DNA of 64,000 bases from an uncultured Gammaproteobacteria bacterium (GTDB lineage: Bacteria; Patescibacteriota; Microgenomatia; UBA1406; GWC2-37-13). How positions within the stretch are numbered: the stretch's first letter is position 1; the number at the start of each line of letters is the position of its first letter. Made by a program: the position numbers and the translations under genes. The stretch is from NCBI GenBank assembly GCA_964542665.1, contig CAZIUF010000001.1, forward strand, positions 21,549-85,548, written 5' to 3'. Shown in pieces: positions 16,922 to 23,744 of the stretch. Below the pieces are notes generated by a model. The model saw nothing but the letters and a program-made list of their open reading frames with translations. It was not told the origin of the DNA and did no database searches.

Positions 16922-17046
16922 AAGGCCCTGCAAGTATATCAGAAGATGTCAGAAAAAGTAGGAGCAATCAAACATCAATGCTGATAAGGGAATCGGTATG
17001 TACGTAGTACGTATATTTCAGTTAGTGTCTTTCTCAATAGACATAT

Positions 17047-20000
17047 TCACAGTCTGGTTATGACTATATTACGACATGTGTTAGATTGTGCATCTGCTGA
17101 ACATGTATAAACAAGACTACACGATGTTTTTGAATTGGGAGGAATAATATCGATAATATTATTGCTCAGATTGCCTCCAGGCGCTCCAACACAATTATCT
17201 GTTCCACCAACTAAGATCGGTTTTATTGCTGATTCGCTGCAATAGAGTCCATCATCAGTAACTATGGTTACGCGATTGCCAGGTATGGTTACTGGCAGAA
17301 CTACAGGCTGGGGACCATGAGAGCCACCTTGATAACGCAAAGATGTTAACGGATCTAATGGGCAGTTGACACCAATATCTGCTTGACTACGATCCACCAG
17401 TAGTTCAACTTGGTTGAAGCTATTAGTTTTATTTTCTTTCTTACAATATGAAGCATTGGTCAGATACCAAGTGCCTGTAGTCTTCGGTACAAAGGTAACT
17501 GCTCTCTCTCCGCTTACCTCATAGATAAAGTCATCATTTGCATCTTGTTGACTGATAGTGGCGCTTTGTGTTAGTACGTCATATCCGGGCAGTGTGATAA
17601 ATGCATGTGCATCGGCGTTTGAGTTTATCATTGTCAATCTCAAAGCAGTGTCTTTTGTGATCGAAATTTCTGCTGGACTCGCAACACCACAGTCAAATGA
17701 GACGGTTTTTTCCACTGGAACCACATCTGCTGCTACCATAGTCAAGCTTGAGTCAAGTCCTCCAGTTGCGCGCTTGAGTTGTGCGATTTGGACGGTATTG
17801 GCGACATTGAGGATGCTCACACCCACAAGCAGCGCGCTTGCAACAGCAACACCTCCTGCAATGGTCTGATGGACCAAGAGACGTGAGAGCAATGCTCTTG
17901 CAGCACTATCTGCGCCAGGGTTAGAAACTTTGATGATGAGAGCATGCTTTGATTGGAGTTTGAGAACGATAAAGAGCGCACCAAATCCAAGTACTCCAAA
18001 TACGAGCGGAGCAATCAAACTATTTCCTGTATCGGCAAGTGTACCCCCTTTGGTGGTGACACCAGCAACGACACCATCATAAGTGAGCGATACGTCTGCA
18101 CAGTCGTCTTCTTTGTTCTTGCCTCCATCACAGTTATTTGGTGTTGAGTCAGTATCCTGCTGTTCTGCATGATATACCTCGGCGAGATTGGTGAGTGCGT
18201 CTCTACTGACTACGAGAACTTTGATCTTCAGGGTTTGAGTCGAGAGCGCATTGAGATTGCCAATCGTCCAGATACCACCCGCCTGGTCGTATTGACCATA
18301 GCTCGTCTCATGAGAAAGGTATGCAAATGAGCTGGTGAGTAAATCTTTGACTTTGACATTGAGCGCTCCGACTGCTGACTCGTTGGCGATAGTGATAGTG
18401 AACTCGACTCTGTCGCCTATCTTCACCTTTGATTTATCAACAGACTTGATCAGCTTCAGATCGATCTTGGCCGGTGTTGGGGTAAGAGTTGGGGTGACGG
18501 GTGGAATAGTGACTGATGGAGTTATCCCGGTAGGATTAGGCGAAACTGATGGGGAAATAGATGGCGATACTGACGGAGAGACCGATGGGGAAATAGATGG
18601 TGAGACTGATGGCGAAGGTGAAGGGGATGGAGTTGCAGTGACATCAATACACTTGATATCGTTTGCTGTACTACCAAACCGACTAATTACATTGGTCCCA
18701 GTTACGACAGCTTTGTCACATATACTCGCTGAGGTTCTTGTGCCGAGTGGATACGTCACTGCATAGATGACGCTCGCATATGACTCACTTGATGGATATT
18801 TTTTAAGAGTCAGATTTGTTTTCCCTGCACTGACTGCAAGCATGGCTTTGTTCGAAACTCCGTTGAAAGCGGTATTGATCTGTGCGCTGCGTAGATTGAT
18901 GCCATAAACTGAACCGGCAATCAGCGAGACTGGTCCTGTTGCTGCACTATTTTCCATATCGTCAGTGATCTGTACATTTTCGACATCTTCTGTAATGCTG
19001 ATATTTTTCACCGTGATCATATATGAGATCGTTCTGCTTACATCGAGAGTATCTATAACAGAGACTATGCGCTTCTCTGTCACGAGTGCATTTGTAGGTG
19101 CCGTCTGACAGTCAGCGCTTGCAGGGTACGCTTCATTGACACATTTGTTTGTGGTGGGTGAGCAATAGTTCGTCGTGCACTGTGCATTTTGAGTACAAGC
19201 TTCCTGACAGGCCAGTTTCCGGGATTGATAATGAGCAGGATTTGTGACTGGTGTCAAAGCAATGTTGTTATATTTTGCATTCAAAGTTGCTGTGTTTTCA
19301 ATGTCACCATCAAGAGCTCCATTTGTGGCAGATGCTGTACAAATCATTTCACTATTGGGAGCAAGGGAGGGACCACCTGTACAGACAAAGGGTGATATTT
19401 GCGAGTGGCCATTTTGGGTATTGAGAAGATCTGTAATTGCTACTTCATTCAAAGTGACATTACCGGTATTTTTAGCAGTGAATCGATATTGCACTTGTAC
19501 ACTCGCATTGATGATTGGTTTTGGACCATTGGCGGTATCGGCTGGTAGATAGTCGGCTGCTGTGCCACCCTTCACATCTTTGAGGAGCGTCATTGCAGGA
19601 GATCCGGTCGGACAGTTAGTGACAACGTCAGCGCTCCAATCACCGTCGCATGACAAAGTATTGGTGGTTGTTTCGTTTGCATCGCCGTCAGTAAGGATCG
19701 CTGTGCACTGATGACAGGTGATATAACGAGACGCACTGCAGGATTGAGATGTTACACCCCCGTTGATACCTCCACAAGTCCAGCTAACCGTCTCTCCAGG
19801 TGCAGGAAACGGTACGGGACTCGGACTCGGTGTTCCAACACCACACAATGTGCTGTTTTGAGGATAGCTGCTCACCGTTGCTCCATATGGAGTGGGTGAG
19901 CTTGCGGTACCGCACGTGCCATTGATTTTTTCAGGAGCCTGACATGTAACTGATGATGATGGGAAAGTACCTGTGCATGTCCACGACCATCGGTGATTTA

Positions 20001-21042
20001 TAGTATCGTGGGTAACAGTAGATGCAGTCCCTGAGGTACACAGAGTGCCGGTTGGCTCAGTATATGTTGGGTTGGTAAGTGCGCTATTGCACACAGCTGG
20101 TATGGTCCTGTTTGCACTACACGAAGGAGTAGCGCCCCCGTTCAGCCCCCCACATGACCATGTCCACCCTGTAGCGGTGGTAATGAAATTGGCCACTGAG
20201 CCAGTACTACAGAGACTTGGTGTGTTTAGAAGGTCGTTCTGATTGCTTCCATTTATGCTGCTACTACATACACCGTCGATGGGAATCGGTTCTATATCAA
20301 TGATGATATTGGCTGGACTAGTACCAGGACCATTCAACGCATTGACGAGTACTGCGGGGCTACCTATTGGCTCAGTGCCATCGCGTGTTACAAGATAGTT
20401 TTGTCCCTTGACCCTATATCCATCAGGAGGAGTTGTGTTACGTACAAAAAGATATGTCTTATTGATTCTACCGTCGCAATTTCCTCCACACCAATTACCT
20501 ATGTTATTTCCACCGATAATATTTGGAGGGTTAGTACTGCGTATGTAGTTTGAACAAACATCGTTGAACCGAGTGTCGTTATTATTGAATCCAGCAACAA
20601 TAGGATTGTTATTTGCGGTGAATGTAAATAGCGGACACGAACTATTTATACAAGATATATACGATTGGTCTATAGATCTATCAGCACACCTAGTGGCACC
20701 AGTATCTGACCAGGAACACAAATAATACATATAGTTTTTGGCTGCAGTTGCTGCATCTGTTGATACAATTTTTTCCTCTGGATCATTTGAAAATATATAC
20801 CTACCCTCGCTATCTGTTCGTGAACTGACAGACCCCTCAAACTTGACATAGGTATTGCCCTCAAAGTGCCCTCCCTGCTTACTCACTATCTGACCAGTAG
20901 CATTCACAATAGCTCCAGTATCAACATAACGAAATTTAACATTGCCTTTGATAGTCCCAGGTATACCTGCCCATACAGGCATCACCGCACTAAAGTAAGT
21001 GATAATCAAGATGAGTATGGTGACGACGTATTTCAACTTCAT
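17047..21042 (-). CDS. giant surface protein (1331 aa): signal peptide, CarboxypepD_reg-like domain, 3 four-Cys modules, DUF11-like repeats, SP/TP linker, internal LADTG sorting signal, second TM helix, cupredoxin-like tail
   Basis: MKLKYVVTILILIITYFSAVMPVWAG signal. Repeated YRFTAKNTGNV / ITVKNIS / FTITIANES DUF11-like strands. TLADTGNSLIAPLVFGVLGFGALFIVLKLQSKH lies about 325 aa before the C-terminus. Confidence 0.85.
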   Translation of the reverse strand: MKLKYVVTILILIITYFSAVMPVWAGIPGTIKGNVKFRYVDTGAIVNATGQIVSKQGGHFEGNTYVKFEGSVSSRTDSEGRYIFSNDPEEKIVSTDAATAAKNYMYYLCSWSDTGATRCADRSIDQSYISCINSSCPLFTFTANNNPIVAGFNNNDTRFNDVCSNYIRSTNPPNIIGGNNIGNWCGGNCDGRINKTYLFVRNTTPPDGYRVKGQNYLVTRDGTEPIGSPAVLVNALNGPGTSPANIIIDIEPIPIDGVCSSSINGSNQNDLLNTPSLCSTGSVANFITTATGWTWSCGGLNGGATPSCSANRTIPAVCNSALTNPTYTEPTGTLCTSGTASTVTHDTINHRWSWTCTGTFPSSSVTCQAPEKINGTCGTASSPTPYGATVSSYPQNSTLCGVGTPSPSPVPFPAPGETVSWTCGGINGGVTSQSCSASRYITCHQCTAILTDGDANETTTNTLSCDGDWSADVVTNCPTGSPAMTLLKDVKGGTAADYLPADTANGPKPIINASVQVQYRFTAKNTGNVTLNEVAITDLLNTQNGHSQISPFVCTGGPSLAPNSEMICTASATNGALDGDIENTATLNAKYNNIALTPVTNPAHYQSRKLACQEACTQNAQCTTNYCSPTTNKCVNEAYPASADCQTAPTNALVTEKRIVSVIDTLDVSRTISYMITVKNISITEDVENVQITDDMENSAATGPVSLIAGSVYGINLRSAQINTAFNGVSNKAMLAVSAGKTNLTLKKYPSSESYASVIYAVTYPLGTRTSASICDKAVVTGTNVISRFGSTANDIKCIDVTATPSPSPSPSVSPSISPSVSPSVSPSISPSVSPNPTGITPSVTIPPVTPTLTPTPAKIDLKLIKSVDKSKVKIGDRVEFTITIANESAVGALNVKVKDLLTSSFAYLSHETSYGQYDQAGGIWTIGNLNALSTQTLKIKVLVVSRDALTNLAEVYHAEQQDTDSTPNNCDGGKNKEDDCADVSLTYDGVVAGVTTKGGTLADTGNSLIAPLVFGVLGFGALFIVLKLQSKHALIIKVSNPGADSAARALLSRLLVHQTIAGGVAVASALLVGVSILNVANTVQIAQLKRATGGLDSSLTMVAADVVPVEKTVSFDCGVASPAEISITKDTALRLTMINSNADAHAFITLPGYDVLTQSATISQQDANDDFIYEVSGERAVTFVPKTTGTWYLTNASYCKKENKTNSFNQVELLVDRSQADIGVNCPLDPLTSLRYQGGSHGPQPVVLPVTIPGNRVTIVTDDGLYCSESAIKPILVGGTDNCVGAPGGNLSNNIIDIIPPNSKTSCSLVYTCSADAQSNTCRNIVITRL
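18025..18039 (-). other. LADTG (LAXTG-type) sortase recognition motif, internal to the ORF
   Basis: Codons CTT GCC GAT ACA GGA on the minus strand, followed by a hydrophobic helix and a KLQSKH charged patch. Confidence 0.7.
18549..18620 (-). repeat. tandem 36-nt coding repeat (SPS[IV]SPSVSPSV linker)
   Basis: GATGGGGAAATAGATGG recurs with a 35-36-nt period on the plus strand and encodes the Ser-Pro linker. Confidence 0.7.
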
Positions 21043-21803
21043 TAGTCAGCTTTCATAAAATCGTAATAGCTATCAAACTCTTTTTGTTCTCGCTTATTGA
21101 CTTTGATGAGCATATAACCAACATCAATCTTTGCTGTTTCTGGATTTTGTGTGTTTTCATTTTGGAAAACTTGAGGCTGACTCAGGCCCCCAATTGATTG
21201 GGACCAAATCAATTCATTTATGTTTGCATCAACAGTTGTCCTCTCGTTCTTTTTGGCAAAGGGTATGCGCGTGTACACATTTCCTTCCCATGCAGTGTCG
21301 ATGTCATCAATATCCGAACGTGTTTTGAGTTTTGCAACTGCTTGTTCCATCGTGATCTCTCCTTTTGAGACAGCTTCTCTGACTTGGGTGATCGCCTCAA
21401 GCGCGCGATCCTTGCGCTCCTCGTATGAGTATCGGGCATTGGGGATATTGTCAAAAAATAGAGTTGCTATTTCAACATCCGCATAGGTCGTACCTTCAGT
21501 CCGCATAAAGTCGTCAAGTCTATTGAGTTCTGCGATGGTCTTTGAATCCAGAGTGGTCTGGTCAACAGCAGCAACTTGGGACAGTCCTCCATCTTGGGTG
21601 CGTTTCAGCTCCAGTAACTTGTCATACTTGCGCTTAATAGTTACCTCTGCAGACTCGGCAGGAGTCGGAGTTGTGGTGATTTTTTCCTGAGTATTGGGAC
21701 GCTGCGTTAGACCTATTTTCTGAATTTGCTGCTTATTTAGGGCTACCCAGCCAGCCACTGAAAGAATGAGGAGGACGATGAGGATAATGAGTATTTTTTT
21801 CAT
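21042..21803 (-). CDS. membrane-anchored protein with a degenerate parvulin (PrsA/PpiC-like) region
   Basis: N-terminal TM helix. The C-terminal ...IGGLSQPQVF...VGYMLIKVNKRE resembles the parvulin PPIase core. Its stop overlaps the adhesin ATG (TAATG). Confidence 0.4.
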   Translation of the reverse strand: MKKILIILIVLLILSVAGWVALNKQQIQKIGLTQRPNTQEKITTTPTPAESAEVTIKRKYDKLLELKRTQDGGLSQVAAVDQTTLDSKTIAELNRLDDFMRTEGTTYADVEIATLFFDNIPNARYSYEERKDRALEAITQVREAVSKGEITMEQAVAKLKTRSDIDDIDTAWEGNVYTRIPFAKKNERTTVDANINELIWSQSIGGLSQPQVFQNENTQNPETAKIDVGYMLIKVNKREQKEFDSYYDFMKAD

Positions 21804-21806
21804 ATT

Positions 21807-23006
21807 TTACTTAGGTGCAAACTTCACATTGATTGAATCAGAATATTTGCTGCATCCTACTGGTGGGGTGACTGCGCATGTGGCATTGATCCAGATGTCA
21901 TATCCCTCTGCCAGATTGAAGTCGTATTTGGATATCTCCTCAGCACCAACCTGGGTATAACACACATCCCAGCTGGTCTTTGCTGAAGAGCTCCACGCTT
22001 GGTTTTTGAAATCAGTACAGCCCCCGTTCATGCGATAGTCATAGCTATAATCGCTCTCAGATCGACTATCTATTCGTACAGCATACGTGACTGCTCCTCC
22101 ACTACATCCTCCTGCTCCCGTCCAACTCAACATTTTTTTATTTATGTCAAGTTGCAAATCGGTTGGTTTTGCAGGTGCACAACCAAGATCTTTTGGCTGT
22201 CGTTCGATGGTGTGTGTGACTGATGGGACAGGTGTCAATGTTGCTGTTGGAGTCAGAGTAGGCGCAGCAATTACATTGATTTTGACTCTAAATCCGTAGC
22301 CTGCACCATCCTGGCAAGAAGATGGATTGGACGAATTGGAGCAAAATCTGAGTGCTGCATAAAATCCGGCAAACCATGAACCAACTTGTTGGGGTGGGAC
22401 AACAGTTACGGCAGTATTAAATACCCCTTCACCAGGAGCACGTTCGAAACTGAATACGCTTTGGTTGCTCACCACTTGACCAGATTGATTGACATAAGTG
22501 ATCGTTGAGCCTGATCTATCAGTCCATATAGTGACGCCCTGCACAGTGGTATTTGTGTTGTTGGTTCCCATGACTATGGTATTGAAACGGCAATCCGAAT
22601 CCCCAAGTACACAGTTGATTTCAACAAAATTATTTTGTACTCGCGGATCACTGTAGCGCAATATGATTGCCTGAGTAGTGGTTGGTGTGACTGTGATTGT
22701 TGGTGTCGCAAGTGGTATATCTATGGATTGGGCAACACTTGGGACGATGGTATTTGATGGCTCGGGTGTGATGGTTGCTATTGGTATAGAGACTGATGGT
22801 ACGGGAGTCAACGAGATCTCAATCACGGTCTGAGTTGGTTCCTCTGCGATCAAGTCAGCCGAGTCGCTCGACTGTTTATCATCTGCTCCAACCATACGTA
22901 GTTCTGAAGATGGACGAATCTGATTGATGCTACGAGACCGCAGGCTCACACCAACAGCAAGCGCGCTGAGTAGGGTCAAAATCAGTATGAGTGGGATTGC
23001 GCGCAT
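21807..23006 (-). CDS. secreted/membrane-anchored hypothetical protein with TP linkers and Cys-rich beta domains
   Basis: MRAIPLILILTLLSALAVGVSL anchor and TLTPTATLTPVPS linkers. ATG at 23006; the track start is GTG at 23042. Confidence 0.6.
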   Translation of the reverse strand: MRAIPLILILTLLSALAVGVSLRSRSINQIRPSSELRMVGADDKQSSDSADLIAEEPTQTVIEISLTPVPSVSIPIATITPEPSNTIVPSVAQSIDIPLATPTITVTPTTTQAIILRYSDPRVQNNFVEINCVLGDSDCRFNTIVMGTNNTNTTVQGVTIWTDRSGSTITYVNQSGQVVSNQSVFSFERAPGEGVFNTAVTVVPPQQVGSWFAGFYAALRFCSNSSNPSSCQDGAGYGFRVKINVIAAPTLTPTATLTPVPSVTHTIERQPKDLGCAPAKPTDLQLDINKKMLSWTGAGGCSGGAVTYAVRIDSRSESDYSYDYRMNGGCTDFKNQAWSSSAKTSWDVCYTQVGAEEISKYDFNLAEGYDIWINATCAVTPPVGCSKYSDSINVKFAPK

Positions 23007-23075
23007 ATATCTAGATCGAGTGTCTGAGGATCGATTTCTCACTCAATATACATACATTTATATACACTTACAACT

Positions 23076-23744
23076 CTATAGCTCTACTGGTAGTGCTCTG
23101 ACGACCAGTCGCTGTTTTGAAGTCCAGAGTGGGGTGCATGTATAGAGCGTCAGGGCAGACTCTGTGCTTGGCTCCTCTATTTCTACGTCTTCGGGTTCAA
23201 CTACTTTCACCTCATCGACTCGATAGGAGTACTCTTTACCACCCCAATATACGATGATATCGTCCCCTTTTGATACTTTATTGAGATCATAAAAAGTATT
23301 TGGGCCAGATGTATAGAGGAAGCGGTGACCCGTGATCACTGTATTGCCGCCTTTGTCAGGCGTAGAGGTTTTTGGCCGACGCCAAAAACCTCGATTGAGT
23401 GTCTGAGCATCTGCACCATCCAGGATAGGAGCATCAACGTTGATCTTTGGGATCACCAGTGTATTAGCAGTGGGTATGGCTTTCAGATCGTTTGGTTTTG
23501 TTTTAATGAGTCCCTTTTTTATCATCTCTCGAGCAAAGCTCGATTGATATACATATCCACCTGTTTTATCGGTGGATTTGCGCCACAGTCCAACGATCTC
23601 TCCTGCAAAAGGCGTCCATAATATATAGGTGATGAGGATGAGGAAGATGATCGTGAGAAACCGGTTCACGAGGGCAAGGATCCGATCAACTGGGTCCTCA
23701 GCGAGAGTAAACATGGTGGCGTGCTTAGATGAGTCCTGGGGCAT
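23076..23744 (-). CDS. sortase (class E-like by its LAXTG substrate)
   Basis: N-terminal TM helix, ITGHR (catalytic His), TLYTCTP (TL-x-TC catalytic Cys) and a conserved Arg near the C-terminus. Confidence 0.85.
   Translation of the reverse strand: MPQDSSKHATMFTLAEDPVDRILALVNRFLTIIFLILITYILWTPFAGEIVGLWRKSTDKTGGYVYQSSFAREMIKKGLIKTKPNDLKAIPTANTLVIPKINVDAPILDGADAQTLNRGFWRRPKTSTPDKGGNTVITGHRFLYTSGPNTFYDLNKVSKGDDIIVYWGGKEYSYRVDEVKVVEPEDVEIEEPSTESALTLYTCTPLWTSKQRLVVRALPVEL

Follow-up and report, generated by a model that had tools for sequence, protein, structure and literature searches.

In the window analysed here, a 64,000-nt stretch of contig CAZIUF010000001.1 (assembly GCA_964542665.1), a minus-strand gene at 17047–21042 encodes a 1331-residue protein, P0001, whose complete sortase sorting signal lies inside the chain and not at its C-terminus. 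This gene probably specifies a two-in-one surface-protein precursor that is cut by a sortase. A preliminary description of this DNA had proposed an internal signal and, from a single precursor, a wall-anchored adhesin plus a separate two-helix membrane protein. The internal signal is borne out in full: LADTG, a hydrophobic helix and the charged patch KLQSKH span residues 1002–1033 and are followed by another 298 residues. The layout of the protein also fits the two proposed products, and they are supported by the invariance of a KGGxLADTG block, by a neighbouring sortase gene and by use of the same motif as a canonical signal in paralogues. Our argument draws on sequence features, their conservation, sortase synteny, the pairing of motif with sortase and the swapping of cassettes between strains.

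Architecture of the precursor

The precursor gene occupies the same locus, in the same frame, in a contig from a near-identical strain (L041). Its product begins with a signal peptide (residues 1–25, MKLKYVVTILILIITYFSAVMPVWA|G; 20968–21042, minus strand, as are all segments below) with a hydropathy of 2.0–2.3 over residues 3–27; the cleavage site, VWA|G, is inferred by eye. The body of the first half, part A (residues 26–996; 18055–20967), consists of Cys-rich modules, a DUF7507 domain (residues 513–593, Pfam E-value 5.5e-15), a Ser/Pro/Thr linker and a DUF11 domain (residues 861–970, Pfam 3.3e-28, TIGR01451 4.3e-18), as assigned with Pfam and NCBIfam models. The motif block TKGGTLADTG follows (residues 997–1006; 18025–18054). 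Within it, LADTG (residues 1002–1006; 18025–18039) is the sole L[PA]xTG of P0001.

Helix 1 of the sorting signal (NSLIAPLVFGVLGFGALFIVL, residues 1007–1027, 21 aa; 17962–18024) reaches a mean Kyte–Doolittle hydropathy of 2.6 over a 19-residue span and contains the invariant residues P1012, L1013 and G1016. It leads into a basic loop (residues 1028–1054; 17881–17961) with three Lys, two Arg and one Asp, for a net charge of +4, which opens with KLQSKH (residues 1028–1033; 17944–17961). Helix 2 (residues ~1055–1080; 17803–17880) has a hydropathy of up to 2.15, includes the segment IAGGVAV (residues 1061–1067) and is proposed to serve in re-export, as a signal-anchor or an internal signal. Beyond it lie a conserved beta domain of ~110 aa (residues ~1105–1215; 17398–17730), recognized in alignments by two invariant Cys, PGY[DS][VI] and GxW..N..YC, with PAEISIT at 1123 and TNASYC at 1195–1200 as landmarks, and a variable tail cassette of 116 aa with six Cys (residues 1216–1331; 17050–17397), delimited by the end of homology to the L041 contig. 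From the T|G bond to the C-terminus there are 326 residues. The features of a sortase substrate are present (an L[PA]xTG pentapeptide, an adjoining helix with basic residues and a sortase in the operon), except that the signal is not C-terminal.

These parts suggest the following pathway. The N-terminal signal peptide would direct Sec export of part A, an adhesin body of ~975 aa. Helix 1 of the LADTG signal would then stop transfer and leave the basic loop in the cytoplasm, where the positive-inside rule would also place it. Helix 2 most likely re-starts export, because the domains that follow it are of an exported type, and this would bring the beta domain and the Cys-rich tail to the outside. 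The operon sortase would cut between T1005 and G1006 and join part A to the wall (lipid II/peptidoglycan). The remainder, part B (G1006–L1331), would persist as a separate membrane protein on a two-helix hairpin, or would be freed by signal peptidase after helix 2.

Conservation of the fused frame

Comparison of the post-signal region with 60 related genomes gave same-genus matches in G004 (66% identity), G010 (55%) and G007 (25%), each a single open frame with DUF11, [TS]KGGxLADTG, helix 1, basic loop, helix 2 and beta domain. When DUF11 plus the signal was used as the query, the fused form was also found in G002 and G008, for a total of five of the ten same-genus genomes. A word-indexed search of 5.8 billion proteins added four full-coverage relatives (94, 81, 69 and 60% identity), and six loci came from scanning GTDB genomes and JGI metagenomes. 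Five matches, including the distant P0007 and P0008, were returned by a profile search of 1.84 billion representative proteins. The LADTG family is rarer than the LP[AGT]TG family described below.

The same layout in a single frame is therefore seen in about seven lineages at 24–94% identity, in independent assemblies (JGI, ENA, NCBI and GTDB genomes). The helices are separated by a loop of 25–60 aa in all lineages aligned, and none of the family members found has a stop codon after the basic patch. The L041 DNA is 93–100% identical to the window across the junction. Because independent assemblies contain the same open frame, they stand in for read support at this point. The preliminary description had offered a recent fusion by stop loss, or an indel error, as the alternative to a processed precursor; this is contradicted by a fused frame kept in about seven lineages down to 24% identity. 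It had also envisaged orthologues that end after the charged tail and are followed by a separate downstream gene, and the alignment contains none.

A chance origin for the motif can be addressed in the genome itself. In a six-frame scan (1.04 Mb, 2793 frames of at least 80 aa), only two L[PA]xTG motifs with a strong adjoining helix occur in secreted-looking proteins: the LADTG of P0001 and an LPGTG on another contig, C14. Both are internal. The LADTG match, being one of only two, already appears not to be fortuitous, and its conservation in relatives settles the matter: the motif is invariant in all homologues aligned, whereas a chance match would be expected to be unconserved, as the preliminary description had noted.

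We take the LADTG family to be real but rare. A two-block pattern ([TS]KGGxLADTG plus GxW..N..Y(C)) found 35 stretches among GTDB genomes and another 58 among JGI metagenomes, and just five and two of these, respectively, encode the full module. The remaining matches may in part be canonical C-terminal KGGxLADTG signals. One 230-aa protein, P0006, was considered as a split form and set aside; its start Met lies beyond helix 2 and its sequence is the same as the C-terminal end of P0002, which suggests a truncated gene call.

Evidence for a working sorting signal

The K-G-G-x-L-A-D-T-G sequence is the longest invariant block in the seven-lineage alignment (24–81% identity). The comparison with P0007, which is 24–30% identical, illustrates how sharply conservation is focused: the motif block is 90% identical, the flanks 23–52%, and helix 1, the loop and the beta domain 23–33%. 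The same motif is found in an ordinary setting in DUF11 paralogues of the same genus (G001, G003, G005, G006 and G007) and in P0023. These proteins end in a C-terminal LA[DE]TG signal of the form QKG[MA]LA[DE]TG-VASILTFGIGS.LLIAAIAIEEMRGR...DDEDD, with the stop codon 37–40 residues past the motif. LA[DE]TG is therefore the working C-terminal sorting motif in this genus.

The sortase gene provides a further line of evidence. An orthologue with 47–67% identity and the active-site sequence TLYTCTPLW adjoins the precursor gene in every locus with enough flanking sequence; it lies upstream in L011, L012, L013, L015 and L016 and directly downstream in G007. Pairing of sortase with motif is strict across 10 loci (L011–L016, L028–L033), with TLYTCTPLW sortases beside LADTG precursors and TLMTCWPPG sortases beside LP[AGT]TG precursors. 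The operon sortase in the window exceeds the cut-off of the general sortase model TIGR01076, with 93 bits. Taken together, the invariance of the block, its canonical use in paralogues, the synteny and the motif–sortase pairing indicate that LADTG is a genuine sortase signal.

A sister family with the same design

The internal LPGTG on contig C14 lies outside the window (C14:13220–18330; L017) and reads, in frame, ...STTRLPGTG-helix-SIRYGVFKK-LALFFSIFILTLVLVGAPNMVSA|EGANN.... Its signal-peptide-like second helix (VSA|EG) is followed by a 10-N scaffold gap (C14:14684–14693), a 297-aa frame and a sortase gene. Upstream of the signal, frames of 759 and 477 aa share a repeated segment (KVTICHSTSSESNPYNQIEVS...) in the region C14:16054–16111. 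They look like one frameshifted gene, and the repeat may have caused an assembly slip or the disruption may be real.

With the C14 sequence as the query, matches were found in 11 of 61 genomes, from three families of the order. In 10 genomes the module is internal to frames of 888–2811 aa and a sortase gene follows it. The order of parts is constant: motif, helix, basic patch, signal-peptide-like helix with an AxA site, and a protein of ~300 aa with its own terminal membrane anchor. The AxA sites after helix 2 include VSA|, VHA|, VNA| and ALA|. G043 encodes these two parts in separate genes, split at the junction. The first ends in ...LPATG-helix-RLKKKKS, and the second begins a few bases on, in another frame, with MKKLLILALMMFGLFAQTAHA|AG.... 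Because this split falls exactly at the junction, the halves of the sister family appear to work as separate proteins. The split and fused states encode the same protein pair, which points to cleavage of the fused chain: sortase would act at one side, and signal peptidase probably at the other.

Precursors of the C14 type and P0001 share an internal signal, a basic patch, a second export helix, an exported protein and an adjacent sortase. They differ in family, motif, part B and sortase paralogue. The loop of P0001 is longer (27 aa, and up to ~60 in one relative), its clade lacks a conserved AxA site, and its sortase gene is upstream, unlike that of the C14 type. Part B of P0001 has no C-terminal anchor and instead contains the conserved beta domain and strain-variable cassettes.

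Helix 2 and the possible release of part B

Helix 2 differs between the divergent members of the LADTG family and the clade to which P0001 belongs. In G007 it resembles a signal peptide with the site ISA|S, and in P0007 one with MSFPKLRF...TQA|V, in both cases led by a relic start Met. In the clade of P0001, helix 2 is ~24 aa long and is associated with an invariant SILNVANTV segment, whose candidate cleavage sites have Asn at −3 or −1. The relic Met-led signal peptides of the divergent members, together with the split and fused pair in the sister family, make an ancient fusion of two genes the likely origin of the precursor.

These observations bear on a variant with an additional signal peptidase I cut after helix 2, in which the chain would be a three-cut polyprotein with part B secreted or held non-covalently and the hairpin peptide left behind. 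The clear AxA sites of the sister family, the Met-led helices with ISA|S and TQA|V, the two signal peptidase I genes in the genome and a second site of this kind proposed for the Zmp proteases (see below) all speak for it. The long helix 2 and invariant SILNVANTV of the clade resemble a signal anchor more, and we regard this third cut in P0001 as a minority possibility.

Other readings of the fused gene

It is also conceivable, although unlikely, that P0001 is an uncleaved polytopic protein, with the hairpin holding one chain that has an ectodomain on each side and with LADTG as a relic or in some other role. This would account for the NCBIfam result, in which P0001 matches two families and neither is a sorting-signal model, and for a sortase that remains unclassified. 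A relic would decay, however, and KGGxLADTG stays invariant while its flanks drift to 23–52% identity. Retention of a dedicated sortase orthologue beside the gene in every locus, and use of the same motif as a canonical C-terminal signal in paralogues, also argue against an uncleaved chain.

Internal translation initiation, with part B made separately and the fused frame incidental, is highly improbable. A Met does head helix 2 in several members of the sister family and in two divergent members of the LADTG family. The P0001 gene lacks an in-frame ATG in the stretch from helix 1 to helix 2, so initiation there cannot explain export of part B; the next Met, M1104, is past helix 2 and would give a product without an export signal. 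As there is no stop codon, the fused chain would still be made. An artefact or very recent accident, with two ordinary genes merged through stop loss or an assembly indel, can be dismissed for nearly all purposes, since the same stop-free frame recurs in independent assemblies at 24–94% identity and the near-identical L041 DNA spans the junction, even though the genome is a draft in 55 contigs.

Several points weigh against the sortase-cut precursor that we favour. An NCBIfam scan of P0001 at E ≤ 1 returned TIGR01451 and TIGR04226 only and no LPXTG sorting-signal model, although models this short perform poorly at internal sites. The operon sortase passed none of the class models (class C, 92 bits; class E, 77; class D, 75; cut-offs 160–165), so its specificity for LADTG is deduced from synteny. 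The preliminary description had invoked a class E enzyme; that assignment is not upheld, as the score of 77 bits is well below the NF033747 cut-off of 160 and is exceeded by class C. In the clade of P0001, the nearest small-residue site after helix 2, NVA|N, is a poor one for signal peptidase. A split two-gene form of the LADTG family was sought in protein, GTDB and JGI searches and none was found. The family is small and rare, and the conservation described above comes from few lineages, mostly of one genus. Finally, we infer the topology, both cleavages and the wall attachment from these comparisons.

The beta domain and the variable tails

No Pfam or NCBIfam family was detected C-terminal of the sorting signal. 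For the beta domain, there was no Pfam match at E ≤ 10 and the best PDB sequence match had an E-value of 0.18. Across the alignment, its invariant residues are two Cys, PG, GxW, N and YC. AlphaFold2 modeled the isolated domain as an eight-strand sandwich at low confidence (predicted local distance difference test score, pLDDT, 57) and the whole module at a pLDDT of 45; the models are poor because the alignments are shallow (5–7 sequences). Foldseek searches with the low-confidence model returned generic beta sandwiches (best E-value 3e-3, TM-score ≤0.45). The copper-binding protein CorA (4bz4) was among these matches at an E-value of 1.5e-2 and a TM-score of 0.45, which is not significant. The domain had been likened to cupredoxins in the preliminary description. 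This resemblance finds no support: there is no sequence match in Pfam or the PDB and no cupredoxin among the Foldseek matches, the His of AHAF is unconserved and the only invariant Cys residues are the two noted above.

The segment following the beta domain varies widely within the family. It is absent in P0004 and G007, is a 116-aa segment with six Cys in this genome and in P0002, and is Cys-rich in P0007 and P0008. In P0003 it extends to ~560 aa with LamG and RCC1 repeats, in P0005 to ~300 Gly-rich residues, and in L012 it is a DUF11-like repeat.

Mosaic evolution of the precursor

The P0003 contig, L041, is syntenic with the window locus and contains the 253-aa gene, the giant gene and typA in the same arrangement. 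Up to helix 2, the L041 and window DNA are mostly 98–100% identical, with some 200-nt bins at 86–93%. Over the beta domain (17400–17800), identity falls to 71–76%. Homology then stops at window position 17413 and resumes at 16969. The intervening ~440 bp of the window, which encode the Cys-rich tail, are replaced in L041:5475–7177 by ~1.7 kb encoding LamG and RCC1 repeats. The flanks of the tail cassette are 90–100% identical between the window and L041 (ENA contig).

A corresponding replacement is seen on the other side of the signal in P0002, which is 93–100% identical to P0001 after the signal and ~33% identical in the N-terminal Cys-rich third (residues 26–593; window 19264–20967). From the cassette replacement in L041 and the divergent N-terminus of P0002, the signal-hairpin module therefore appears to be a fixed joint, with cassettes on either side exchanged between strains. 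The strain-level swap of the post-hairpin part points to diversifying selection on an exposed tip.

Relation to known systems

The closest known layout is that of the streptococcal IgA1-protease/Zmp family. These proteins contain a signal peptide, an LPXTG motif, two hydrophobic segments, a large exported domain and a possible second signal-peptidase site (PMC3518915, which covers the IgA1 protease (ZmpA), ZmpB, ZmpC and ZmpD and their atypical LPXTG domain, and cites Bender and Weiser 2006). A sortase A knockout is depleted of ZmpB and the IgA1 protease (PMC13604702). The order of parts is the same in P0001. In the Zmp proteins, however, the motif is near the N-terminus and the wall-linked piece is small, whereas ~975 aa of adhesin precede the motif of P0001 (residue 1002 of 1331). 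The Zmp proteins are M26 zinc metalloproteases that use LPXTG; P0001 has no M26 domain and no homology to them (its Pfam matches are of the DUF11 type only), and its LADTG motif is matched with a dedicated, operon-encoded sortase of a divergent type from the candidate phyla radiation (CPR).

Relative to a canonical sorting signal, P0001 shares the motif, the adjoining helix, the basic residues, the N-terminal signal peptide and the neighbouring sortase. The canonical signal is C-terminal; in P0001 the basic patch is followed by a second helix and then by the conserved beta domain and the variable tail. No account of this layout was found in the literature on internal sorting signals, sortase polyproteins and CPR sortase substrates, and one paper describes sortase as near-ubiquitous in Microgenomates.

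We consider it an evenly balanced question whether sortase is here the processing protease of a natural bacterial polyprotein, yielding a wall-linked adhesin and a hairpin-anchored protein with strain-specific binding cassettes, and with the hairpin as a joint for recombination shuffling. If so, and together with the commoner LP[AGT]TG family, internal sorting signals would be a general means by which Microgenomates/Patescibacteria assemble their cell surface, one for which we found no account in the literature searched. It would also be a simple natural example of sortase as a polyprotein-processing enzyme, and one that is open to testing.

Annotation pipelines and sortase-substrate predictors depend on the general assumption that sorting signals lie at the C-terminus. 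When a conserved internal signal is coupled to a re-export helix, sortase substrates can be overlooked and one gene could yield two stoichiometrically coupled surface proteins. CPR bacteria depend on attachment to other cells, and the surface architecture of these ultra-small organisms may be built from such precursors.

Operon and genome context

The host genome is a draft metagenome-assembled genome of ~1.04 Mb that is 96% complete. Its relatives carry the name Candidatus Roizmanbacteria, in the CPR/Microgenomates lineage. The precursor gene closes a compact minus-strand operon of four genes (sortase, 411-aa, 253-aa and 1331-aa products), with typA downstream. The first gene (23076–23744, minus strand) encodes the 222-aa sortase, which contains the TLYTCTPLW active-site region and an N-terminal membrane helix and matches PF04203 (1.4e-30) as well as TIGR01076. 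Between the sortase and precursor genes are two further minus-strand genes. One (21807–23042) encodes a 411-aa membrane-anchored or secreted protein with no Pfam family and no sorting signal. The other (21042–21803) encodes a 253-aa protein that is anchored at its N-terminus, also lacks a sorting signal and has a stop codon that overlaps the precursor start at 21042. The 253-aa gene is likewise upstream of P0003 in L041.

A genome-wide tally gave six sortases, two signal peptidase I genes and four matches to transpeptidases of the penicillin-binding protein type. Despite the six sortases, the six-frame scan of this 96%-complete genome yielded no convincing protein with a canonical C-terminal LPXTG or LAXTG signal. 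Relatives in the same genus do have such proteins.

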